The notes beneath the pieces are model-generated. The model did no database searches, was not told where the DNA came from, and worked only from the letters and a program-made list of their open reading frames with translations. Position numbers and translations under genes: made by a program. A stretch of DNA of 57,673 nt, the filler included, from Sluysia triapertura (taxonomy: Eukaryota): assembly GCA_046118255.1 (NCBI GenBank). It is 5 parts of 5 records of this genome, joined end to end, with 100 filler letters (N's around TTAATTAATTAA, not from the genome) between each part and the next. Parts side by side here need not be neighbours in the genome. Positions count along the whole stretch, not along the records: positions 1 to 11,245 come from JBJNIA010186869.1; 4 more parts are not named here. One strand, 5' to 3'. Of this stretch, positions 1 to 46,408 are shown piece by piece. The stretch's first letter is position 1. Every line of letters begins with the position of its first letter.

Positions 1-580
1 AAATTTTAAAATGATATTACGCAACCCTTGTATGGTGTTGCTTTAAAATAAAAAATATTTTAAGTAGGATTTTTTGATTCCCAAATGGTGAATCGCCCTT
101 ATAAAAATAACAATTACTTGTTCATGGAAAATCTAAAGTTGAAAAAATCTTCGGACACTTGAATATTCTTCGGCAAATTTTCCTAAAAATTTTTCTAAAA
201 ATTTTTTGTGAAACTTATATTAAAATCTTACCCTATTTATAGATATTTTAGTGTCTTCCATTTTTTCTTTATTCCATTTAATAAAATTATTTTAATAAAA
301 CAAAAGTAAAATTTTCTTTATTTTTAAAAATTATAAAATTCTTTAAATTTAAACTTTATTTTTATTTAAATTTATTAATTTTTAAAGTTTTAATTTAAAT
401 TTTATTTTATTTAAATTTAAATTAATTTTTTAAATTAATTTAAATTTTTTATTTACTTAAATTAATTATTTTGTAATTTTGTAAATTAATATTTTTTTAT
501 AATATAATAATGATAATAATTTATAAAATAAATAACTATTCAAATATACAATTATATACAATTAATAATTAATTCTGACA
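1..580 (-). mobile_element. LTR-like repeat (family B), partial, apparently inserted into the Gypsy polyprotein ORF
   Basis: Minus strand starts TGTCAG at 580, then an AT-rich tract and TATAAATAG (~233-241). Bases ~15-130 align by eye with 10760-10870. Coding-like sequence starts immediately at 581. Confidence 0.5.
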
Positions 581-625
581 TAGATAAGGTTTTAGATTTT
601 GTAATTAAGAAAACTAAATTATGGA

Positions 626-1640
626 TTGAAAATCAATATAACGAAAGAAAAAAAGAGCCAAAAAACAGAAGAGCCGACAAATATAATGACACAATTATTT
701 GGCAATAACGGTAATATGTTAAATAACGTAATACCAAGGATAGGTAATTCAACAAATAATATGTTATTTATCATGATATTATTAGCAATATTCGGCATAA
801 ATAGAACTAATGCAATAAAGGCATTTGACTGTAATCAGCCACCAATAGGTAGAAAATTTTCATTATTCGATACGGAAGAATACAAATAAAAGATACTAAG
901 TTAATGAGTGTTTATCAAGAAGGTAATCTAACAACAACTCTAATAAGAGAGTGCATGGCAAAACGATCATTGGCAATCTGGTATGGCGGTCACCATAGAA
1001 TAATAATAGAATTATCAATAATAGAATTATCTAATGTACTCAAACCATTTAAGAAATTACCTAAACAATGCAGAGATGTATTTGAAACCAGCTACATAAG
1101 TCTAACAAAGGGAGACAAATTAAAATAGGAAATAATGAAAAGATAATTTATAATATAAGAACCGCCGGAAACGTATTGATAGATGGAACATGCGAACAAG
1201 GAACAATCGAATACGAGGGAAAAATATATCACAATGTTGCCGCACAGGAGACATGCGTAGTTAGTTTAAAATCATTTAATGAAAGTTTTTATATGGATAA
1301 AGGCACGATGATGTCCCGATCATATTGTAAAAGTGATCAAACCAGTTGTGACAATGGAGAATCAATATTAATTTACGAACTAGACAAATTTCAGTTAATA
1401 TTCCTTAAACAAATAAAATTTAATGTAATATCGGAATTTATGTATCAAGATAAAGATGAACACCCATTAGAAGAAATAAATAGAAATGATGACCAAATAC
1501 AAAGAAAAAGATTAGATGAAGTCGAAACACCGACAATACTAATGGATAGTAAAGAAGAAGATGGTCTGATTTTTACTGCTAAGGGAACAGAAATTCGATG
1601 CGGAAAAGAGATGACAGAAACTAACTATCAAGGAATTTAA
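626..1640 (+). pseudogene. env: Env-like glycoprotein, chuvirus G / class III-fusogen-like, N-terminal half, frameshifted
   Basis: Signal peptide MLFIMILLAIFGINRTNA (from 761), then IKAFDCNQP..FSLFDTEE, VYQE..IRECMAKRSLAIWY(G)GHH, GTCEQG..YEGKIYHNV, CG..M..TNY. The Cys pattern matches remembered chuvirus-like glycoproteins. Confidence 0.7.
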
Positions 1641-1802
1641 AATAATGAGAATGAAGAAATAGCAGAAAATCAAAAACACATTAAGATCAAGAAAACTATA
1701 GACATAACTAAAGATAATCAGGAAAAAGGACTTTATCCTATTACTCCAACATCACCACCCCATGTAATCTATGTGATATGTGCTAATAATTATTATAATT
1801 GA

Positions 1803-2100
1803 TCGAATAGACCAATAGTAAACACTAGAATAAACATTAGAGTAGTAACGGCACTAATTGATACAGGAGCAGTAGCCTCCCTAATAAACGAAATAAAGAT
1901 GAATTAAAAAATTTAGCTAATCATATTTCTCATTTATCAGGAGTTACAGGCGATACCATTAATATAACCGGAGTGATGAAAGCTATATGTGAGATAGGAC
2001 AAAACAAGCTAGAAATTAAATTAAGAGTTATGAAAAAATGTCCAGAAGAAATGATAATGGGAATGGACATTCTGTCTCAATTAAAAGAAGTAACACTAGA
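1803..2100 (+). pseudogene. Retroviral-type aspartic protease (PR1)
   Basis: RPIVNTRINIRVVTALIDTGAVASLI (Asp codon 1860-1862); after a frameshift LSGVTG..ITG..EMIMGMDILSQL. Confidence 0.9.
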
Positions 2101-2149
2101 TTTCGACCAAGTTAAATTAATGTATAGTCGATCAAAGAGAGCTATTGAT

Positions 2150-2410
2150 GATGATGTATACGTCGATAAACCAATTTGGTTAGTAAAAAGAAGTGAATAT
2201 ATAATTCATGTCAAGACAAACAGTCTATTAACTGGAAATATCATGTTCATTGCATCAGAGGTCAACCAAGAGAAACTAGACATAGGAATAGCTAATGCAG
2301 TGTGCAATAATTGCGAAGGAAAAATACCAGTTCGGATTATAAACTATACAAATGACAATAAATGGATTTATACATGGACAAAATTAGGAAAAATAGTCAA
2401 ATATACGATA
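2150..2410 (+). pseudogene. dUTPase-like linker domain between PR and RT
   Basis: IGIANAV..GKIPVRIINYTNDNKWIYTWTKLGKI resembles the degenerate dUTPase-fold segment of many Gypsy pol proteins. Confidence 0.5.
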
Positions 2411-2589
2411 CCGCCACACATTAACTTAATTTCCGAAAACAAAAACGAAAACAAGATAAAGAGTAATTAAAATTACAACATGAAATAAAAGATGATGATT
2501 ACAGCGAAATAGTTATTACTAATAAGAACTTAACTAAGAAACAGATTGATCAATTATATAGTGTTATTTACCGATATCGAATTTAATGT

Positions 2590-3050
2590 CGAATTTAAAT
2601 GGACTAATGAACAAACTAATGCATTTAAGGAACTGAAAGAACGATTGACAACGGCACCAATATTAATTTTTCCGGATATTAACAAACCATTTATATTGAC
2701 TACTGATACTAGTAACTATGCTATTGGTGCGATTTTAGGCCAAAAAGACAAAAACAATTTAGAAGCAGTAATTACTTATGCCAGTCGACGTTTGAATAAG
2801 GCCGAGATGAATTATTCGACCATTGAAAGAGAATGTTTGGCTATTGTACACGCTTGCAAATTATTTAGACATTATTATTGGGACAGAAAGCTTATTTATA
2901 TACCGATCACAAGCCCCTAACATATTTATATAATTATAGAGATGAGGTCAGCCGATTAAGCAGATGGTTTAATAAATTAGCAGAATTTAATTTAGAAGTC
3001 ATTTATAAACCAGGCCCTCAAAACAATGGCGCGGATTCTATGTCACGCTT
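2590..3050 (+). pseudogene. pol: Gypsy RT connection and RNase H
   Basis: FKWTNEQTNAFKELKERLTTAPIL..FILTTDTSNYAIGAILGQ..YASRRLNKAEMNYSTIERECLAIV..(frameshift) YTDHKPL..YKPG..ADSMSR. Confidence 0.95.
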
Positions 3051-3088
3051 GACTAATGTAGATGATAAGGAAAATATTAATTTTATAC

Positions 3089-3251
3089 TGCTAGACTTCG
3101 TAAAATGGACTGACCGGGGATCGAACCCGGGACCATCGTCTGCGCAGTCCGACTGCTCTACCACTGAGCTCTCAGCCCCGTCCAACAATTTCAGTTTTAT
3201 TATATTCAATTTTATCAAATGGCACTTTTTTTTAGGCCTTTTACCCCAACA
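3089..3251 (-). mobile_element. 163-bp TG...CA mini-element (solo-LTR-like) carrying a tRNA-like gene
   Basis: Flanked by ATAC at 3085-3088 and 3252-3255. Termini TGCTAG...CCAACA are an imperfect inverted repeat. Excision restores the pol frame (NFI-QIMSISGK). Second copy at ~41784-41923. Confidence 0.85.
3106..3178 (-). ncRNA. tRNA-like sequence with non-canonical anticodon arm, followed by TTTT
   Basis: GGGCTGA/TCAGTCC acceptor stem, GCTC-AGTGGTA-GAGC D arm, CCGGG-TTCGATC-CCCGG T arm. Anticodon region irregular (GACTGCGCAGA, loosely Cys-like); isotype not assignable. Confidence 0.7.
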
Positions 3252-3255
3252 ATAC

Positions 3256-4430
3256 AAATAATGTCAATATCAGGAAAAGTACAGGATACTAAAGAAATTA
3301 TTAAACATCAAAGAGAGGATAAGGAAACCGCTTATATTATAGATTCGCTAGCAAAGGGAACGTTAATCGAAAGCCAAGCAAATAGGTTAGCTATTACTGA
3401 CGGAATACTCAGATTCAGAAATTCGAAAGGTGAATTAGGCGGTCATTTATCTAAGAGAAAGACACTATCTAGAATAAAAGACAAATATTATTGGGAAGAT
3501 ATGGAAGATGATATTACAAATTGGTATAAAGATTGTTCAATATGTTGTAGAAGAAAAAATATGGGAACAAGAACAAAGGTACCATTAAAACCTATGCATG
3601 TACCATTGTCACTAATGGAATTTACAGCAATGGACATAATCGGACCACTACCGGAAACTATCAGTGGAAACAAGTATATTATTGTGTTTGCTGACTATTT
3701 AACTAAATGGCCTGAAGCATATCCAATGCCGAATCAAAAAGCAGAAACTGTAGCACAAATATTGGTAGAAAAAATAATATACAGGTATGGTACACCAAGA
3801 AAATTATTAACTGATCAAGGTACAAATTTTACTGGTGATGTAATCAAATCAGTAGCAATAATATTTTATATTCTTAGAATTCATACATCACCTTACCATC
3901 CACAAACTGACGGATTAGTCGAACGATTTAATCGAGCATTGATAAATATGTTACAATCCTATATTAATGACAGACAATCCGATTGGGATTTATACATTTC
4001 ACCATGTTTATTTGCCTGTACGTGGTTCTGTACATCCAGCTACGAATTTTATACCATTTTACTTAATGTAGGGACGGCATTCTAATATGCCTGTAGATTT
4101 AGAATGGATACCACCAACGTCACAATACATGGAAACTCCGGAATATGTAACAGTAATGCATGAGAGATTACAAGATGCATGGAAACGTGCTGGATTGCAA
4201 ATAAAATTTTCACAAGGAGTATACAAAGACACTTATGATAAAAAAGCCAAACAACACACTTTTCAAATCGGTGACAAAGTACTTATTGAATATCCTGACA
4301 AAACCTGGACAATCACCAAAATTACATAAACCATTCAAAGGACCATACAAAGTAATAAAAATTACCGATACTAATTTATTTGTCAAAGACACTATTAAAT
4401 CAGATTCCGAAACATTTATAGTTCATGTAA
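3256..4430 (+). pseudogene. pol: Gypsy integrase (partial HHCC, DDE core, GPY/F)
   Basis: GGHL..YYW..CSIC; AMDIIGPLP; LLTDQGTNF; HPQTDGLVERFNR; frameshifted tail FQIGDKVL..KLHKPFKGPYKV..IVHVNRCK. Confidence 0.95.
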
Positions 4431-4589
4431 ATAGGTGTAAATTAGCACCAAACAATGAATATAGGTTAAGTAATAGGACAGTTACTAAAACATTAATAAA
4501 AGCTAAACCGAAAATTAAAGACCGTGACAATACAATCATTAGTTGATAAACAAGTAATAATGATATTCAATGTATCAACAGGAATACGA

Positions 4590-4910
4590 ACACATATCTT
4601 TCAAAACGTACGATTTAATGGTAGATGAACCGGAGCTACCACATCTGTAATACATTATAATTTTTTAATTACATGGGAAGTTGTACTTATAGGTCCACCA
4701 CAAACGATAATTTACAATGTTCAACGAGCACCTATACATATGAATGGAATAATACACGCGCATTTACATGTATTAGACAAACAAGTAAATGAGTATATTT
4801 ACGTTTGGGGAGAATCTCCTTTCGATTTAATAATTGGTTTAAATTAGATGATATAGTTATACATAGTAAATACGGACTTATGAAATGTCCATACGGTACA
4901 CAATTACTAG
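4590..4910 (+). pseudogene. Second retropepsin-like aspartic protease (PR2) downstream of integrase
   Basis: One frame reads QNVRFNGR*TGATTSVIHYNFL..IIYNVQRAPIHMNGIIHAHLHVLDKQVNEYIYVWGESPFDLIIGLN. It has (D)TGA and DLIIG motifs; the Asp codon is disrupted at ~4624-4629. Confidence 0.7.
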
Positions 4911-5109
4911 TCCCACAAATTATTGTTCTATCTCTTCATAATGATATTACTCCAATTCATATTCCTACACCTGAACTCCCATCTGGCCGATTAACTGATT
5001 TATGTCATCAGTAACAAGTGAATTTTCAGAATCATTGTCATCAGGAATCGGTTCTGTCGAGACAGTAATGCTCACTTTCTCCAGTAAAAATAATAATAAG
5101 ACTAAGAAA

Positions 5110-5689
5110 TCATTCTGGACCTCATTATTAATATTAATAGTTCTATTTATAACTTTAATTGGTACAGTTAAATCAATAGATATTGAGGAATATTAGGAAT
5201 ATAGGAACTTATATGCCGCAATTAATAATGGAAAGACAAAAAAATATCGATTACAAATATATATAATGAGTATTGGGAAATGAAATTCAATTCAAAGAAA
5301 ATGTTTATACGTCATAAATTCGATATTTACTGCATTTATTTGAAACCGTTATTCATCGGAAAACCACATCATGTAGATAAAATACCACGATGTTTGCAAT
5401 ATGCAATAAACCAATGTTAGTAGCATTTTCATTGGACACTAAAAGAAATATAAGAAAAGTGCAAAATTTCATACAAAATATAACAAATAAAGTCATAAAG
5501 AATTGTACAACTAAGTTCAAAGCTAGCACACTATTATCTAACGATACTATGTATAATATTTTTACTTTAGTTCATAAGTTAATTATTATCTCAGTAATTC
5601 TTATAGTGGTATATGACATATGGATTATATTGCACATAGTTGACTTCAGTAAAAAAAACTACGAACAAGTAATATTAATAAAAAATTGA
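5110..5689 (+). pseudogene. Accessory membrane module 1 (signal peptide, ectodomain, TM), unknown function
   Basis: FWTSLLILIVLFITLIGTVKS|IDIEEY, then a disrupted ectodomain and TM LIIISVILIVVYDIWIIL. Confidence 0.5.
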
Positions 5690-6217
5690 TACATCTAACG
5701 ATAATGATGATAATCACTACAGCCCACTGTAATACTCATAATGTATTACTCATAATGTAATACTCATAATTACGACGCTGAGGTCAGAATCAAAGTATTA
5801 CAAAGTGACATTCAAGTTAGATTTTCTTGCTTAAAACCCGCACGATTTAATTTCAGCTCATGGGAAGTACAACAATATTATATCAATGATAGAGCAAATC
5901 CTGTCGCCATATGCCCTGATTTTCTACAAAACGAAGAAAGACACATTGTTGCAAGAATATATATAGCACCAGCTAAGATAGAACAATTACATTTTGCGTT
6001 AAAAGGAAAACGAAAATATTTGTCATTATCAGAAATGCTACGAAATGACCCGGAATTATTAATTTTAATTTTAGCTGGAATATTATTTGTTATTGCACTA
6101 TGCATTGTTATACTTGTAATTATTATGTTCATATCAAATAGATGTAGGTACCCATGTTTACCATATAATCGTGACGATGATGACAATCAATACACCATTC
6201 CGCATAGGACTAATTAA
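5690..6217 (+). pseudogene. Accessory type-I membrane module 2, unknown function
   Basis: Frame open from 5756 to 6217 (CNTHNYDAEVRIKVLQSDIQVRFSC..TM LLILILAGILFVIALCIVILVIIMFI..CRYPC). Signal-like LIHLTIMMIITTAHC is rejoined if two copies of the 14-bp repeat are removed. Confidence 0.6.
5728..5769. repeat. 14-bp tandem repeat x3 (TGTAATACTCATAA)
   Basis: Three adjacent copies, one mismatch; they cause a frameshift in module 2. Confidence 0.9.
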
Positions 6218-6307
6218 TGAACCGCCACCAGGATTTCAAGTAAGACCAACCCTGTCTACGAGTACGCAACAAATAAACATTCACCTTTAGTATACGGAGG
6301 ATGGCAA

Positions 6308-7242
6308 GTGACTAGTTTACAATCTGTCATGCTAGCATGTATATGTATGACTTGTATAATTAACGTATATGCAAAATCGATAATAATAAAGCCACATATT
6401 GCATTAAAAGTATTACAACGCACGATATATGCAAAGATAAGAAGCGATACTGCTATAGTCACTAATATTACTATGCACTGTTGTTTGACTAAATGGTGCA
6501 ATCATGAATCAGACGTTAGCAAATATACCAAGTACTGGATTGCATCTTGTGATGGTCTTATGGAAAATCAATAATTCAACGTCACTCTACATTTAGAATT
6601 TATGACAAATTGGGATTCGACAACCAAGTTTATATGTATGTACAGGATTTTCTTTTAGTTAGTCATCTTACAATAACTATTAAGTTCTTAATGACATTGT
6701 ATAGGGAGAACAATAACTTCGTTCATACATTAATTCCCTTAATAAAACATAATATATTAATAGGTTACGAATCAAATAAAAAGAATCTTACTAGTGATAA
6801 TTTTGACGCTCTTTTTGATAAAGAACAACATTATGCACTAATATTACCCAACACCAGTATTCATTTATTCTTTGTACCAGAACGCAATTTCACACTTATT
6901 GAAATTTGGATTCTACGTTATAACGAGATCCACGATATTCCTGGATTCTGGCCAGAGTATAGAGTATGCGATCTAGTGGTGCCAATCTTAGACAAGTCAG
7001 ATGTTCTAAATTATCCATCACCAGTTACGACCACTACTATTTTAAGTATATTAAAAACTATAAGTTATACTAGAACCACCAACTATGTCACTAGACCAAG
7101 TAAGAATATAAGTCTACAATCTTATAATTACTTGTGTTTAAGCCATCCGATCATCTCTACAAATTTATATCGCACTATTCTTAGTTATTACATTTTATTA
7201 AGTTTTCTTTTCGTTACTTCATTTATACACATTATATTCTAA
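6308..7242 (+). pseudogene. Accessory secreted/membrane module 3 with Thr-rich stalk and C-terminal hydrophobic anchor
   Basis: VMLACICMTCIINVYA|KSIIIKPHIALKVLQ.., Cys-containing ectodomain, PSPVTTTT stalk, terminal ILSYYILLSFLFVTSFIHIIF*; stop/frameshift near 6574-6610. Confidence 0.55.
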
Positions 7243-7472
7243 GTTCATAAGTTTTATTTATTTATAAGGCATAAAAATCAGTTTTTCATTAAAGTATAAA
7301 TTATAAAAGGCATAAAATGTGAGTGATAGCATTTCCCTGTTTACTAACCATGTGTGACGGCTGTTAACTTTCAATTCTCGGTTGTGGACAGGACAGCGTT
7401 GGAGCTCATATTTTAGTAAAATAACATACGCTATTTAGTTAAGAAGAAGTTTTACTAGCATAATTAGTTAAA

Positions 7473-7919
7473 ATGAATTTTCATATTCACCTTATGCTCC
7501 ATTTGTCGAAGGCCTATACATAGATACTACTCTATCGCAATACTTTGTAGACATCGCTTTCATTTGCGATGTCTGTATTTTCTGTTTGACTCTGCCCCGA
7601 TTCTCTTACTTTCTTGTTCTTTGTGCCGAGCCACAATCACAGAATGTGATATTTTTTTTATAAAAAGTCATTTCGTAGGTCTTACGACTTCTCTATCAAA
7701 TACATTAGACTTAACTCAATCCCTATTGTAGCTTATAATGGGCTCCGGGAGAATGCGAACGTTGATATTTATCAACCTCCAATTTTTCCAGGCGTTACCG
7801 TCCTGTACAACGGATTCCAGGTACCAAAGCCTGATTATCCACCAGGACTAACAAAATCACAAAGGCGTAATTATAGAAATTTCATAAGAATGCACGATTA
7901 TGCAAAAATCCATTTTTGA
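7473..7919 (+). pseudogene. RING-H2 finger protein (putative E3 ligase) inside the retroelement
   Basis: 7495-7629 translates to CSICRRPIHRYYSIAILCRHRFHLRCLYFLFDSAPILLLSCSLCR, with all eight C3H2C3 ligands. Frameshifted tail ..PPGLTKSQRRNYRNFIRMHDYAKIHF*. Absent from the ORF track. Confidence 0.85.
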
Positions 7920-8063
7920 AACGCTAGTATATTTCCTAATTATTATCGCTTATTATAGTACTAAAGTACATTGAAACATAAAAAATTACTTTTTAACATT
8001 TTTCTTTTATTTTTACGAATTTTCCTCTTTATGTAAATTTTAAATTATTTTCATAATCCAGCA

Positions 8064-8563
8064 CACATCGAGTCAAAATACCCCAAGCCAGAACCATCAA
8101 CCAAATCAAAATCTTTTACTAATCTATTGATAAATTCTGCGTAGAGAATACTACTCCTAAATTCTTTTCTAATTCCTTTGCCACGGACTGTAAACTGAAA
8201 TCCGAATTAACTGACAATGTGGCAACCAACATTTTTGCTTTATCATCAGAGATGCCTTTTACTTCCTTACAGGGCTTGACCAATGCGCCTGACGAATTTG
8301 AGACAATGCACATAGTAGCTGCACGAGTGACAATTAAGGTCACTCTAGAGGTTGAAGGAATCCCTTTATTATTACGCCTAGAAAATCACTCGACCCTCCA
8401 TCTATAAAATCTAAATATAAATCTTGTAAGGTAATGATGAAAGCCCTTTAATTCCAAACTTTTCTTTTTGTTCTGCCTTCTAATCCTCTTTTTGTTCTGC
8501 CTTCTAATCCTCTTTTTGTTCTGCCTTCTAATCCTCTTTTTGTTCTGCCTTCTAATCCTCTTT
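8064..8563 (-). pseudogene. Possible antisense accessory ORF with basic KRIRRQNK repeats
   Basis: One minus frame reads (KRIRRQNK)x4-KKSLELKGFHHYLTRF..VE*FSRRNNKG..VKPCKEVKGISDDKAKMLV..; a single internal stop. Confidence 0.35.
8464..8563. repeat. 24-bp perfect tandem repeat, at least 4 copies, running into an assembly gap
   Basis: Unit CTTTTTGTTCTGCCTTCTAATCCT. Confidence 0.95.
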
Positions 8564-8959
8564 NNNNNNNNNNNNNNNNNNNNNNNNNNNNNNNNNNNNN
8601 NNNNNNNNNNNNNNNNNNNNNNNNNNNNNNNNNNNNNNNNNNNNNNNNNNNNNNNNNNNNNNNTTGCTCTCTTTTTCCTCCCGTTTGCAGTGGATGGGAA
8701 GGCGGCTCATCATATACGCACGTTCCGCCCCTTTCTGCGTATGATGAGGAAAGACTTATGTTTGTGGCTTTTCAATATGCCACAGATTTCTTGAATAACC
8801 CTCAACTAATTTGTGTGACCTGTACTCCGTAAAGTCGTCAATTTCACACTGAGCCCCCATCAAACCTCGATGCCGTATCCAAAATTTGAGGCGCAACGTT
8901 CAAACGATCACGGACGTCGATCATAGGTTGGCTAAGGACATGGACGAGGTCCCCCGCAA

Positions 8960-9478
8960 TTGATAGGGATTTTACGTAATAAAATCCTAGTAGCGCTGAA
9001 TCCCAAATTTATTATTAATGCCTTAAACATTCCCTTCGGGTTGCTGAGAGGGATCATTAATTTATCAAACCATAATTTGGTTCCGTTTGCCACTGACGAT
9101 CCTTTTATTAGAGCACGTCAAACAGTGCGACTAATTTTCCATTTTAGTCCAGTGTTGACTTATCGGCAAATGGCATCAGAATTAGTAACCCTGCTTGATT
9201 ATAAAAGGGAGCGAGATTTACAGTTCATTTCTCGCTGTAATAACCCTCCACCCGTTCTCTTTAAGAAACCTTCTACTATCCCTACTTCTAATTCCAAACT
9301 TTCTCCTCCTTCTCCGAAAAAAACTCACATCTTCTTCTTCCCCTTCTACTTCTTTTTCTTTTCTTCCTTAACTTCCACTCCTCATTCGACAAGACAATTC
9401 AACGATTCACCATCATCTGCTCCATCGTTTGCCAAATCATCAGTGAATACTTCATCAGCAACTAAGACTTCATCATAG
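8960..9478 (+). pseudogene. Unknown accessory ORF with Ser/Pro-rich tail, probably part of a longer frameshifted ORF (8664-9650)
   Basis: 172-aa ORF in a locally GC-richer region; no family recognised. Confidence 0.35.
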
Positions 9479-9736
9479 CCAATCCACCACTCACTAAATT
9501 ACCAACGAGTACGACATCAATAAATCATCGAGAAGCACACGAGTTGCAGCTGCTGTCTCCAAAGAAATTTCATAGTGACAATGGTTCCCACTACTTGTTC
9601 CGATACGACTACCTACTCCATGAAGACGACTCGGTGGATTTGGACTGATAATTTAGACTAATATTACAATGATATTTCATAATAATTATGATCTATTTAT
9701 AATAATATGACATTTTTTTCGAGAACGAATTTTCCC

Positions 9737-9751
9737 GAAAGGGAAAGTAGT
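9737..9751 (+). promoter_or_regulatory. Polypurine tract
   Basis: GAAAGGGAAAGTAGT immediately before TGTAAAG, preceded by TTCGAGAACGAATTTT, a Gypsy-like context. Confidence 0.75.
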
Positions 9752-10541
9752 TGTAAAGATTAAATTTTTATAATTACACTTTATGTTTTTATATTTTATG
9801 TATATTTGTTAAAATTTTATATGAAAAAATTATAAATATTATTATTATACTTAAAATAAAAATATAAATTATAAATAAAAATTAAAAATATAAATATAAA
9901 TTAATTTTGTTTAAAATTAAAAGTAAGTTTTTGTTTAAAATAATTAATTAATTTTAAGAAATAAAGAACAATTTTAAATATCTTCATCGTTTTATTACTA
10001 AACTTTGTTGATAGAATTCTCAAATCCCTCACCGGATCTTTAAGTAATCGAATCACTAAATATTGGTTAGCACAAAATGTTTCTTTAATCTGATTAGTTT
10101 CTTGAAAAATAGCTGAAATCTGATCATGTGTAACTAATATTCTACAGAAATAAGAAATATTAAGTTCTGTTGGTTGATCAGTTGCATTCATATTTCCAAT
10201 TAAACATTACTTTTACACTTAATGCTTCACTTATGTTAATCGATTTACTATACTCTTGAGTTAGACTTCCTTCTGCAAGTGTTTCTAAAAACTTAAACTT
10301 ATTTGCAAATTATCTGAGGAGTCGGTTCGCCTAATACATACGATTTATACCACTAATTGGAAACGTACTATTAGGTTTTCTAAATTATACTTAACTAACT
10401 TTTTATTTTATAACTTAAGTCTTATCTTTTATGTCCAGTTGCTTGGAGCACTTTAATTAATTTATACTACAACCCCTTACTAGGTGTTGTTTAATTAAAC
10501 TTTTATATTTTATATTTACGCAACCCATATTAAGGTGTTAC
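9752..10541 (+). mobile_element. 3' LTR of the Gypsy element (3' end uncertain: ..TACTACA 10471 or ..GGTGTTAC 10541)
   Basis: TG start directly after the PPT; AT-rich U3-like tract. Confidence 0.6.
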
Positions 10542-10556
10542 TTTCTCAAAAATTAA

Positions 10557-11245
10557 TGTGAATTTCGATAAAGATAAAGTTTAAACACAATTAATTAAAA
10601 ATGAACTTAAACTGAAACTTTTTATTGCACAAAATGTTAACTTACAAAATTACAATAATAATGAGCTTACAATTAGTTAATAAAACAAAATATAATAATA
10701 ATAATGAATTTAACAAAGTAATTCAACCTCAGTTGATTACAAATAATTTTAGCGTAAGGTTACGCAACTCTTGTTAAGATGTTGCATAAAAAACGAATTT
10801 TCGTTGATTTTTGGATTCCCTTAGAGATGAATCGGACCTTATAAAAAAATTAAATTACTTGTGCATGAACTGATTTACAGTTTTCAATTTTGTCTTCTAA
10901 AAATTCAAATTCTAAATCCTGAACTTGATCTAAAAAAATTGTGTTGAAAATATTTTGCTCACTTCTATTTATATTAATCCAATTGATACTTCCATTTTGT
11001 CAAATATTAATTTAATAAAACAAAATTTGAAAAACAAAGATTTATAAATTTAATAATTTTTTGTTCTAAAAAATGTACTTCACCTTTTATTCAATTTATT
11101 CAATTTTAAGTTTAGTAATTTAATTTTAATTTTAATAGTTTTAATTTTCTAGTTTTTTCTGACTTTGAATTAACGTTTTTATAATTTATTTTATCAAAAA
11201 TATTATTTTAAAATTAATAACTTTTTTATTTTAATTATAATAAAA
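10557..11245 (-). mobile_element. LTR-like repeat (family B), second diverged copy, truncated by spacer
   Basis: Shares TTACGCAAC..GTTGC, GATTCCC..TGAATCG..CCTTATAAAAA..AATTACTTGT and the minus-strand TATAAATAG with 1-300. Boundaries approximate. Confidence 0.5.
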
Positions 11246-38810: not shown

Positions 38811-40592
38811 ACTAACTTAATTGACCTCAATGTAGACTTGATAATTCATCCAAAGACTTTAATATTGATGATGAATCGGTGTATACGGAATATATATTAA
38901 ATAGTAAGAATGATGACATTTTATCTCAAAACATACAAATGTCATTTTTAGTTCCGGTTAATACTATGATGAATGTAAATGAATGATTACCAAACAATTT
39001 CACGGAATCATGACACATTAGAAAGTAAAGAAAATATTGAGAATTGTGGTAACAGTTTACGTTATAATATTTTTCAAGATAACATACAATCAGGAAGTAA
39101 TTCTCCTACTCTTTTTAAAAGCTTTCACAAGTCGATTGAATGCTTATCTGAATTAAAAGAAAATACGGAAATTATAGTCTACAAAGACTATAATTGCAGA
39201 TAAAGCAAATGACGAAGTTGAGATTGAGAAAAAAGATGTAAAACAGAGTAATATGAACCTAATTCAAAATTTTGACAATGCACGACAAATATTTAATGGT
39301 GAATTAAATGATAAATTTCTGCAAAAAATATGTCCCAGGTGTGTTTAGAATCTAACGAAAAATGCAAAAAAGATTACAAGACACTATTTCTTCTAAATGT
39401 CAACTTTTTTACTATATACCTAAAATTGTAACGTATGCTCCATCAATTCCTAGAAATCCAGTGTTTCAAAAACATTTCAATAATGAATGACACACAAGTC
39501 AATATATTAGAACAGCACTTTGCCCATAAAGCAGTGACCCAAAAGGTATTTGCATGAAGTTTGGGATCCATTATCAATATGCCCACACAGTTAGCCAAAT
39601 AGTAAATCTTAAGACCGAAGATACGTCTCATGCTGATCACTTTTCCAGACTCGAAAATCTTCTCCAATACTTTGGATTATCAACTTTAAAAAAATCGGAC
39701 AAGATTGTATTCATAAAGTAAATAACTTTTATCCTGACATCAATGATGATATAATTTTTGATTTTTATTTAGATGGCGTAATGTGGAATTCGATAAATGG
39801 CATATATGGGACTAAACACGTGAATTCTAAAAATTTTATAAATAAATCTTTGTGTTAATTATTATTAATGATTTTCTTAATTTTCTATACAGCATAAATT
39901 TAAAATATAAAAACTTAATAAGTTTTTGTACGAAGAACAAACTAATTTCAGTTATAAAGTTCATCTTTAATTTAAACCATATCATAACTCAACAAACATA
40001 ATTATAAATTATAAATTTATATAAATTAACAATAAAAATAATTTAAACAATTTTTAGTAAATAAATAAATATAAAATTGTAATAATTTACAAGATTACTA
40101 CATGAATATAGTAATCCAAGTAATTGAGTTTAAAATAGAAAAAATCTAAAAAAAACTGTTTAAAAATGTTTTGAAGAAGGTAAATTAAAAATAAATTTTA
40201 ACTAAAAATTTTCTGCTTAAATGTTGATTAAATAGCGTTATAATCTTAAAAATTGTATGCTAACGATTATTGTGATTAAAGATGAAGTCCGTCTCAAAAT
40301 ATAGTTTAATTAGTCCTGACGGCAAATACAAATTTTTCCAAATTAATATTTAAAAAATTAACTGGTAAGGAAACCGCTTTGAAAATAAAATTTTTTTGTA
40401 TGAACAATAGTAGTTTACACTACTATTTATATATTAATTGATATTGACCTTGAAGGTCTCGGGTAGTGAAGTTGATTTTATAAGCATAAAACCTAAATAT
40501 AGAGTTAGAAACTGACCAAAAAACGAAAATGTATTATGCAATATGTATTTCATGAATATTTCATGTATTTCAATATTGTTAATGTAGAAAGA

Positions 40593-41783: not shown

Positions 41784-41923
41784 TGCTTGGTCACTTAATC
41801 GAACCCGGGACCATTTTCTGCGCAGTCGGTGCTCTACCACTGAGCTATCAGTTCCGTCTAACTATTTCATTTTTATTAAATTCAATTTTATCAAATGGCA
41901 CTCTTATGCCTTTTACCCCAACA
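41784..41923 (-). mobile_element. Second, more decayed copy of the tRNA-carrying mini-element
   Basis: ATCGAACCCGGGACCAT..CTGCGCAGTC..TGCTCTACCACTGAGCT..TTCAATTTTATCAAATGGCACT..GCCTTTTACCCCAACA shared with 3120-3251; same CA end. Confidence 0.85.
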
Positions 41924-43079
41924 CTAGATACGTTGCTAAACTCACATATAGTTTTATTCTCGTTTGGAAAACAAGCTTTTCTCACAGTATTATTTTATTA
42001 TTATTATATTAGTGTAATAAAATATTAAAATTATTATAAAATCATAAATGTTTATTTAAAGTATTAAGAAAATTCATTTAAAATATTAAAAAAATTTTCA
42101 ACCAACTTATATTTAAATTTTTTGTTTGAACAAATCAATACTCAATATCTGGGCTTACGGATTACGGCTAGACCGTTGAATTTAAAAAAAAATAATAACG
42201 TTCAATTATTGGAGGTTAAACTTAGTCTCAAATGTCTTATTAATGAACTTTAGCGTTACTTCTTATGTAAGCAATGGTGTAAACTGTTAAGTGATGTATC
42301 ACAAATTTTACTATTCAAAATATAGTGGGGTTTAGACTGATTATTGAATATTAATCTTTTCATTCATTATCAAATTTTACGACAGATCTTTCTTAAATAG
42401 GATCTTTAGAATTTAATGGTTTGTGATATCCGATGAAAATTTCGGATTTTAAAAGAAAGAATTTGATCTGGTATTGTAATTTATAAAATTCGAATCTATG
42501 TAATTTACGAATGATCCTTCTTAAATAGGATCTTTAATTAATATTTTAATTATATATGTGTGAGGAAGTTTACGTTAATTCTCTATTAAACTGAATCAAA
42601 CAAAAAAACTTTGCATACTCATATTAAAAATAAGTTTTTCGTAAACATTGATACAAATATTTTAGTTAGGTTTAAATAAATGAATAAATAAGGTTTATTA
42701 TAAAAAATCAGACAAAAATATTTACAAAACATATATAATTAATGTGTGGAGGGCAATAAACATTCGAATTTATATTCTTTATTATTTTTTAATTTATTAT
42801 GGAAATTGCTTATAACTTTAATTAAATCTAAATTATTTACAGTATTAAATAAACCAAAACACTTTAACTTTGGTTGTATTATGTTTAACAAAGTAGGAGT
42901 AAGGCCTGTAACAAATAACAAACTTAAAAAGGTAACTAAATTTGCCATTTTATTAACTACCAACAATAAAAAAGAACAAAAAAGGTTAATATCAAATAAT
43001 AATAAAACTATGTTTTTCTGTACATCCACTAGAGTATCTTCCGGAGTTGCAACCAATAATTGTAATGTTATTAATCTAG

Positions 43080-43290
43080 CCATTATCCAGACAAATTCAA
43101 TATTAACATCTTCAGCAAAGCTTTCACCAGGTGGACAGTGGGAATGTTTATCGATCGATTTTTCTATTACTTCTTTAAGAGCACCTCTCGATATTAGATA
43201 GTCTCCACTACCACTAATGTAACCCTGTTTCGCGTGCATCTTAGAACGTTTACCCGTAATTGTCAGTGTATTTGGATCCATATGTATTAC
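43080..43290 (-). pseudogene. C1GALT1: Core 1 beta-1,3-galactosyltransferase (GT31) fragment inside the 269-aa ORF 42739-43548
   Basis: DPNTLTITGKRSKMHAKQGYISGSGDYLISRGALK..C..AEDVNI(frameshift)ICL parallels YFGRRFK..KQGYMSGGAGYVLSKEALK..EDLALG.C. Confidence 0.7.
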
Positions 43291-43924
43291 ATAGTCATTT
43301 TCTTCTTTAGTATGTGGTGGCTTAGAAGATTTTGAGTTATTTTTACTTTTATTGATATATGATTTAACACATTTCCAAAATATTACTATAACAGCAAAAA
43401 TCATCAAAAACATTCTGTCGTTAGAGTCAAATTTACTTTTACTTTCCCAATTATTTTTAACTTCATTAGGTATGAATTTAATATTTTTCTTAATAAATTG
43501 TAAACCATGATCTTGTCTTGAAGTATCTCCACTTGACATTTCAAACAATAATTTATTAATATATTTTTCATAAAATCTTTTTTATCCATATTCATCATAA
43601 TAATTAATGCTAATTTAAAATAAGTTTTCAAAACAAAATATTGTTATAATTTAAGTACTTTGAAACTAAATTATGTTAAATTCAAAAACATGATTAAAAA
43701 TAATTATTCCTTTAAACTACTAGATTTTTTTATTGTCATTTAATTATTAGTATATTTAAAGTTTACCAAAATAGAATTGGTCATATAATAGTCTGTTGTT
43801 TAGCAGGTTTTCTATTTTTTACAAGAATAATAATAATTAGGAAAAATCATTGTAATGAAATTAATCTACCACTTGGAGAAATATCCTTATGAAACAACTG
43901 AAAAATATTTGCAGATATTTTCCC

Positions 43925-45780: not shown

Positions 45781-46149
45781 ATCACTTCAAAAATCATTAA
45801 TTTTGTATTTATAATTTCAAAATAACAATAAACTAAATGGAATTTATTTTAACATTTGTAACTTTGCTAATACTCTCTCATGATACTCTTTCATAATTCG
45901 TCATTTCGTTATTATCGCGCCACCGCTCACCGTGCCTTCAACCATCGTTTAACCGACCTACTCATCATCACATGTATCCGTCATCGTATCAGTCTCATGT
46001 ACACACTCATCATGTACCGTATAATCAACAAACACTTAACAGAAACAAGAGTCCCAGTATGAAATTACATGTCAAAAAATTTCCAGAAAGCAAAGAATTC
46101 ATCATAATGACTTAACTGAAGAGCGTACCGCTTCTAGAAATAGAGGACA

Positions 46150-46408
46150 GCAGCTGGCAGATCAATTAGATACAATGACAAGTTTTTGCTTGTTCGACCA
46201 AGATGCAATCGAACAAAGTGAAGTAATGGCTATTTTACAAAGTATGGGACAAAATCCAACAGCAGAAGAATGCGATAAAATTTTAAAAGCGCAGATAAAG
46301 ATGATAATCAAAAGATTACTTTTCTCGAATTTGTCAAACATGCCAACGAATTTATAAAGAAACCTAAAACTCAAAAGAGAAGAATTGAAACAAGATTTGA
46401 ATATATAA
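46150..46408 (+). pseudogene. Calmodulin-like EF-hand pseudogene fragment
   Basis: SFCLFDQD--AIEQSEVMAILQSMGQNPTAEECDKILK/ADKDDNQKITF/LEFV..EELKQ; EF1 loop deletion and frameshifts. Confidence 0.75.

Follow-up and report, generated by a model that had tools for sequence, protein, structure and literature searches.

A broken RING-H2 gene behind the pol of a decayed Ty3/gypsy element in Sluysia triapertura, probably an accessory gene with predicted E3 ligase activity

The locus considered here, part of a 57,673-nucleotide stretch of Sluysia triapertura DNA (GCA_046118255.1, filler included; "the window" hereafter), raises the question of whether a RING-H2 gene lying 3 kb behind the integrase of a Ty3/gypsy element, on the same strand as pol, belongs to that element, and what a retroelement would do with what seems to be a ubiquitin ligase of its own. 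The reading that we favour, with a probability of about 0.6, is that of an element-borne accessory E3 ligase which is dead in this copy and whose activity is predicted; everything beyond the identity of the domain and the repeat status of its DNA is what we infer from the evidence below.

The retroelement and its relatives

By domain content and order, the element is a decayed Ty3/gypsy retrotransposon of GAG-ENV-POL (Burro-like) layout in an animal genome: a gB-type env lies upstream of pol, and the Ty3/gypsy pol order (protease, RNase H, integrase) is kept, the reverse transcriptase being lost here and present in the relatives of its clade. One of these, P0130, has the env-pol order intact and carries a CCHC knuckle, gB-type env, protease, reverse transcriptase, RNase H, integrase and a hydrophobic tail in a single frame of 3735 aa. 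The features up to the RING gene are as follows.

713..1634 (+): gB-type (Monjiviricetes fusion-like) env, N-terminal part, in three frames and truncated; PF24664, E=1.4e-4
1809..2416 (+): aspartic protease and following domain, frameshifted; tblastn to P0014, P0015 and P0019
2576..3093 (+): RNase H, frameshifted; PF17919, E=1.8e-37
3106..3254 (-): tRNA-Arg(GCG)-like repeat between RNase H and integrase; ARAGORN, Rfam
3291..4546 (+): gypsy integrase, broken near its C-terminus; PF17921 and PF00665
4578..4880 (+): another protease-like domain, decayed; matches P0014 by tblastn (E=1e-5)
5090..6290 (+): membrane-protein remains (signal-like stretch, ectodomain, transmembrane helix), read from frames
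6221..7242 (+): two open frames (117 and 229 codons) that belong to no known family

The env remains match residues 1258-1573 of P0130 (tblastn E=1e-16), which itself matches PF24664 at E=1e-91, and the domain following the protease occupies the place of Burro's dUTPase-like domain, a label that we apply to it as a candidate only. No reverse transcriptase was found between the protease and RNase H, the corresponding region of the relatives having no tblastn match in the window, and the copy thus reads as internally deleted and non-autonomous; since the reverse transcriptase is missing and both env and pol are broken, it cannot replicate. As to where the losses fall, env ends after approximately 315 ectodomain residues (1640-1810) and the reverse transcriptase is absent at about 2470-2576. 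Because neither a gag match upstream of 713, nor an LTR pair or target-site duplication around the element was found, its 3' boundary is not fixed; a single purine tract lies at 9737. A diverged repeat starting TTACGCAAC is seen on both element flanks (about 17-310 and 10760-11040), with a third start at 10516. PHROGs returned no matches for nine frames, the 229-codon frame had no usable ESM Atlas hit, and no BIR, BCL2 or MATH Pfam match was obtained for the frames of the window, in which the region upstream of env is missing. Weak protease matches behind the integrase also occur in P0016 and P0021, and P0015 has two before its reverse transcriptase.

Of 1965 candidates from a word search with the integrase frame, 979 proteins reached E<=1e-20, of which 120 were listed; the best relatives are 52-68% identical to the integrase, which in a tree of the window and 34 of 121 relatives forms a clade with 16 unnamed proteins at a support of 99/99. 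A RING motif was present in none of 120 pol relatives, as judged from the listed protein of each. The clade's polyprotein often extends 338-738 residues beyond the integrase and has one to three hydrophobic helices there, the tails (P0010-P0024, P0130) being made up of a signal-like stretch, an ectodomain that looks beta-rich and a hydrophobic helix at the C-terminus, and falling into no clear Pfam family; they look like a second surface protein besides env, with motifs that resemble fibronectin type III repeats by eye only. The remains at 5090-6290 stand in the place of this protein, and their homology to the relatives' tails is unproven, as a profile of those tails matched the frames below threshold (E=0.055 and 0.25). 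The post-integrase surface protein, which the excerpted text of PMC13524379 does not mention, is possibly the more novel feature of the clade. Contigs carrying gypsy pol genes (L014, L015, L016; P0010) sit inside bacterial MAG records, one of them labelled Turicibacter, and are probably eukaryotic contamination.

The RING-H2 domain and the broken gene around it

The integrase is followed by approximately 3.4 kb of extra frames, of which the last to be considered are those of the RING gene itself.

7243..7472 (+): RING gene leader, with ATTAAA at 7288, TATAAA at 7295 and 7302, and acceptor-like TTTTACTAG at 7450-7458; pattern match only
7473..7475 (+): probable start codon, in another frame than the RING; the first break lies between it and 7495
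7495..7629 (+): RING-H2 (C3H2C3) domain, unbroken within its own frame; Ile precedes Cys2 and Arg follows the last Cys
7650..7919 (+): Pro-rich frame with a basic tail at 7851-7916, probably the RING protein's C-terminal part, in a different frame from the RING

The frame at 7477-7731 (+) holds C-x2-C-x13-C-x-H-x2-H-x2-C-x14-C-x2-C, that is, a complete RING-H2 ligand set at RING spacing, with ligand codons starting at 7495, 7504, 7546, 7552, 7561, 7570, 7615 and 7624. The complete motif which a sequence-only reading of this DNA had reported is thus borne out, all eight ligands lying within 7495-7626; the motif is unique in the window over all six frames and turned up in none of 1000 Markov-1 resamples of 601-8500. 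The Pfam search for zf-RING_2 suggested by the same reading gave E=4.9e-6 and fell just short of the curated cut-off (27.2 against 27.3 bits, i.e., 0.1 bit under), and the top ESM Atlas match was a zf-RING_2 cluster (0.94). A structure model from a three-row alignment reached a pLDDT of 73.8, which is not independent evidence, because the other rows are themselves RING proteins, and the single-sequence model was unusable (pLDDT 46.7). Foldseek matches listed for the former were nearly all RING or E3 entries, with a best probability of 0.98-1.0 and none at E<=0.001; as modelled, the domain has the RING fold (hairpin and central helix) and resembles RING ligases.

No close homologue of the domain turned up: a word search with the RING frame at 46-147 aa brought one candidate and none at E<=0.01, and phmmer against 1.84 billion representatives brought nine hits at E<=0.001 (31-45% identity), none of them under 1e-10. 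Eight of the nine were examined, all generic RING proteins, P0005 being left out as repetitive and showing no RING motif by eye. Many Atlas look-alike clusters are recorded as Nucleocytoviricota or Preplasmiviricota, and these taxa do not show a donor or a transfer.

Is the domain then a ligase? A Trp in the central helix and a Pro after the seventh ligand are common, if not universal, in active RING-H2 ligases; here a Leu stands four residues past the sixth ligand instead of the Trp, and a Ser follows the seventh ligand instead of the Pro, which two of the phmmer hits (P0004 and P0007) do have. Decay or a non-catalytic role could explain both absences. Two other hallmarks are kept, a hydrophobic residue preceding Cys2 (Ile) and the linchpin Arg after the eighth ligand, these being marks of E2 binding and E2-ubiquitin activation (PMC13061254, in excerpt), and on the strength of these residues we regard the domain as a RING-H2 with predicted E3 activity. 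An element-borne accessory protein in which the RING is a non-catalytic zinc scaffold and which, by virtue of its basic tail (6 K/R of 22), works as a regulatory or RNA-export protein in the manner of CERV of Cer1 or Rev of HIV is rather improbable: the missing Trp and Pro fit it, E2 binding is absent from some RINGs (PMC13061254, in excerpt) and CERV sets a gypsy precedent (PMC10309623, in excerpt), but the Ile and the linchpin Arg are both retained, and for CERV no RING domain is described in that excerpt, its "rings" being oligomers. CERV, a spliced-mRNA product of Cer1 of C. elegans with a Cys-rich loop and needed for gRNA export, is like the RING gene in being a gypsy accessory protein that is a Cys-rich zinc-binding candidate with a basic nuclear signal, and unlike it in having 517 aa, in overlapping gag, in lacking any described RING and in serving RNA export (PMC10309623, in excerpt).

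As regards the gene around the domain, the sequence-only reading had proposed one ORF over 7473-7919 with a single frameshift after its ATG. The likely ATG (7473) is indeed out of the RING frame, but there are two breaks, since the ATG, the RING and the basic tail fall in frames 0, 1 and 0, respectively. The first lies between 7473 and 7495; the second is placed near the T8 run at 7652-7659, because the RING frame stops at 7731 and the basic patch sits in the 89-codon frame 7650-7919. The RING frame contains no ATG of its own, and the phmmer hits P0004 and P0007 likewise begin five residues ahead of Cys1. In this copy, then, the gene has become a pseudogene whose frame is broken twice, and as it stands the copy cannot make a RING protein. 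That splicing might bridge the first break was considered and rejected, the RING frame being closed by the stop at 7474-7476 with no AG between 7477 and 7495. A 63-codon frame at 7472-7663 was likewise discarded as a real gene, having no family match; its codon-position score is nevertheless slightly better than that of the Cys-rich RING frame (1.1 against -5.2).

The acceptor-like TTTTACTAG in the leader ends 15 nt upstream of the ATG, and, together with the TATA-like words, would fit a separate message for the RING gene, of the sort described for rotifer ORF3 genes (PMC5408684, in excerpt). From its length (103 of 20000 resamples left 85 codons open from a fixed point) and its codon-position score (frame 0 best over this part, -0.5 against -7.3 and -6.9), we infer that the frame 7650-7919 continues the RING protein as its C-terminus. 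The basic patch claimed for that end exists (6 K/R and 1 acidic residue in the last 22), although it sits in this separate frame rather than in that of the RING. Neither the word search nor phmmer found a homologue spanning the two parts, the C-terminal frame had no candidate homologue in the word search at 48-156 aa and no family match in Pfam or PHROGs, and downstream of the stop there is neither a poly(A) tail nor an AATAAA. The GC content of the gene is 0.37 against 0.32 for pol. Taken as a whole, it is probably the pseudogene of an accessory gene of approximately 150 codons in the 3' region of an env-bearing GAG-ENV-POL Ty3/gypsy family.

Copies of the RING stretch and their link to the element

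Evidence on copies comes from one public run (X1), whose contigs were aligned at 80% likeness and which probably represents the same organism, to judge from a contig of 573 nt that differs from 9244-9816 at a single position. The listing of runs with this stretch included no RNA run, which has no bearing on expression. As many as 20,945 contig records fall on 500-10500, most of them at <95% identity. Summed contig depth is no copy number and swings widely between bases (639 at 7135, 96,997 at 7306); by bin it runs as follows:

5176-7179: 7,636-58,815 over the bins
7180-7513: 30,149
7514-7847 (the RING bin): 17,687
Past the RING bin: down to 6,801, then 1,318
8182-9851: 778-7,554
Most env and pol bins: 105,000-430,000
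Single contigs: 16-34

Most pol bins are 6-15 times deeper than the RING bin; the summed depth of the latter is comparable to that of the adjoining accessory region and single contigs stand at 16-34, so the RING stretch is clearly repeated, at about the level of that region. Positions 7180 and 7306 are covered by 28 and 36 contigs, respectively, and near 7306-7322 the depth peaks locally and a loose end occurs.

Two contigs connect the stretch with other parts of the element. The first, with a depth of 35.5 and a shorter side of 45 nt, runs from env (1545) into the C-terminal frame (7812) and is among the 15 joints listed out of 290; the other joins 5286 to the RING leader (7347) at a depth of 24.8, with letters between at the joint. 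The sides of both joints are unlike the rest of the window (best 24-29 of 45), and they look like internally deleted copies at other loci, each represented by a single contig. For the linkage with pol in other copies that the sequence-only reading had asked for, the depth over the RING and these joints are supportive, and no single piece with both integrase and RING was seen among the X1 contigs. Elsewhere, the integrase search returned nothing in viral contigs and one distant locus in metagenomes, a search with the clade alignment returned 12 distant viral-collection loci and three short loci (1.9-4.7 kb), and the RING frame returned no loci in viral contigs; none of 16 loci, which at 1.9-7.1 kb and mostly from other clades are too short or distant to speak on linkage, had a RING motif, and none matched 4550-8460 by tblastx.

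What do the copies say about the origin of the gene? Animals have many RING-H2 genes, often lineage-specific ones, which would suit a one-off host retrocopy, or a host exon, lying beside this element copy by chance, the very outcome that the sequence-only reading had named as fatal to its own proposal. It is, however, quite improbable: the stretch is multicopy, highly repeated in run X1 and tied to the element by the two contigs, no close relative was found among the 1.84 billion representatives or in the word search at 46-147 aa, and neither a poly(A) tail nor AATAAA follows the stop.

It is rather unlikely, too, that the gene comes from a different repeat (a nested or adjacent element, a DNA-virus or a Polinton-like fragment) or is a passenger fragment that multiplied neutrally along with a non-autonomous subfamily. 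The composition shift at the RING, the depth peak and loose end near 7306-7322, the many Atlas look-alike clusters recorded as Nucleocytoviricota or Preplasmiviricota and the missing LTR could be taken that way; against this, the RING lies on the pol strand with no repeat boundary or second transposase seen, the depth is continuous with the upstream accessory region, the two contigs tie RING-flanking DNA to element parts 2-6 kb upstream, and the Atlas taxa give no sign of transfer. The claim that the gene lies inside the retroelement thus has repeated, element-linked DNA behind it and falls short of proof, as no LTR was found; that the gene is element-borne is, to our minds, quite probable.

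Predicted function, known systems and other features of the window

In an active element, the RING protein would be made from a separate message, spliced or internally promoted, as a small and presumably soluble protein, its N-terminal RING binding two zinc ions and an E2-ubiquitin conjugate, and its unrelated, Pro-rich and basic C-terminal part perhaps directing it to nucleic acid or into the nucleus and selecting the substrate; it would thus be a self-contained E3 ligase acting on host proteins that limit the element. Such a small soluble ligase, with its substrate chosen by the C-terminal part, is the reading we favour and hold to be rather probable.

The target is another matter. The anti-silencing or anti-defence role proposed from the sequence can point to the RING-H2, its two E3 hallmarks and the multicopy, element-tied DNA, but nothing points to a silencing or defence target, and the role is a possible one by analogy to viruses. 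Granted E3 activity, we would name a silencing or restriction factor tentatively and cell-death or stress signalling, by analogy with what has been suggested for Burro cargo, with somewhat more doubt; the element's own proteins, trafficking or budding seem unlikely to us, and any other target less likely still, these being matters of our judgement. Cell-death signalling or the element's own proteins would be about as likely targets as a silencing or restriction factor, and that such a factor is the substrate at all is, overall, unlikely. The same may be said of the most far-reaching version, in which an undescribed gB-env gypsy clade has a polyprotein ending in an extra single-pass membrane protein and one of its families carries, as a separate 3' accessory gene, a catalytic RING-H2 E3 that degrades a host silencing or restriction factor.

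How much of this has precedents? The capture of extra ORFs by gypsy elements is already known, and so are the ubiquitin- and apoptosis-related domains of Burro. Burro/GYPSM1 are giant gypsy elements of planarians, with an env related to mononegavirus fusion proteins ahead of pol and a cargo of MATH, Ubi2/SUMO-like, BIR, BCL2 and ankyrin domains linked to ubiquitination and apoptosis (PMC6431247, in excerpt). By description, the present element is like Burro in its mononegavirus-type env before pol and its accessory ORFs, and a relative (P0021) shares the ankyrin repeats, whereas Burro's cargo is placed in the long polyprotein or upstream and the RING here stands alone behind pol (PMC6431247, in excerpt). 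The Burro polyprotein, near 5000 aa, has BIR, BCL2 and MATH cargo; P0130, at 3735 aa, gave no match to any of these. Burro also has an AIR1 motif, a motif which consists of CCHC knuckles. Such knuckles are assigned to Gag in the Burro review, the excerpted text of which describes no stand-alone RING-H2 ORF behind pol, its sole RING wording being the name of the AIR1 motif (PMC6431247).

GAG-ENV-POL errantiviruses with an HSV/gB-type env are described from Nematoda, Bryozoa and Platyhelminthes (PMC13524379, in excerpt); our element resembles them in having a gB-type env ahead of a Ty3/gypsy pol and in being multicopy, and differs in that this copy is without gag, reverse transcriptase and recognisable LTRs and has the approximately 3.4 kb of extra post-integrase frames. 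The main text of that paper has no whole-word occurrence of RING, ubiquitin or accessory. Bdelloid LTR retrotransposons carry captured ORF3 genes behind pol, typically as separate spliced units, the types named being DEDDy, GDSL, coiled-coil and transmembrane, with a silencing role discussed as a possibility (PMC5408684, in excerpt); they, too, have an extra non-env ORF behind pol, and RING and ubiquitin occur nowhere in PMC5408684. RING as a whole word is equally absent from the Retand (PMC11963269) and orchid AlkB-gypsy (PMC9289625) papers, and a literature search covering mostly the main texts of open-access papers found no report of a stand-alone RING-H2 ligase or accessory ORF in an LTR retrotransposon.

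BFVD fold matches of the RING came from Mimiviridae, Pithovirus and nimavirus wsv222-like proteins, and the gene product would resemble the small RING proteins of large DNA viruses in being short, with a RING at its N-terminus and, behind it, an unrelated region on the substrate side; this is a generic fold similarity (17-35% identity, E>0.001) that provides no evidence of a viral donor or a common target. Herpesvirus ICP0 and poxvirus p28 serve as functional models of viral RING proteins. All in all, the RING gene was probably carried as accessory cargo by a gypsy family that is multicopy and of GAG-ENV-POL layout. If the most far-reaching version is true, this would be a retroelement with a self-contained ligase and not an adaptor to host ligases, which is what lentiviral Vif, Vpr and Vpu are. 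If selection maintained the RING in the family, the substrate of the ligase would identify a host protein restraining env-bearing retroelements in an invertebrate, a restraint of which, to our knowledge, little is known beyond the piRNA pathway.

Several other features of the window deserve recording. The tRNA-Arg(GCG)-like repeat between RNase H and integrase is a very high-copy SINE-like insert, with a second copy at 41798-41926 (86% identity), approximately 75 conserved nt 5' of the tRNA and a depth of about 1.25 million at 3150 in run X1; six sister-element contigs skip 3084-3252 and are thus without the insert. The region 8060-9740 is GC-richer (0.33-0.40) with decayed frames on both strands, the purine tract at 9737 being followed by TGT; within it, a 24-nt tandem array (8463-8563) runs into an assembly gap, and a minus-strand frame (8122-8385) looks helix-hairpin-helix-like by eye, with no Pfam or PHROG match. 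Further along, a 280-codon frame with a hydrophobic helix at 42739-43581 (-) has no Pfam match and includes a stretch that we take, by eye, to resemble a galactosyltransferase motif, 46040-46357 (+), which has no Pfam match at E<=0.01, looks by eye like a decayed EF-hand of calmodulin or myosin-light-chain type, and 38565-38900 (+) is a host-gene exon with a RUN domain (PF02759, E=1.8e-8).
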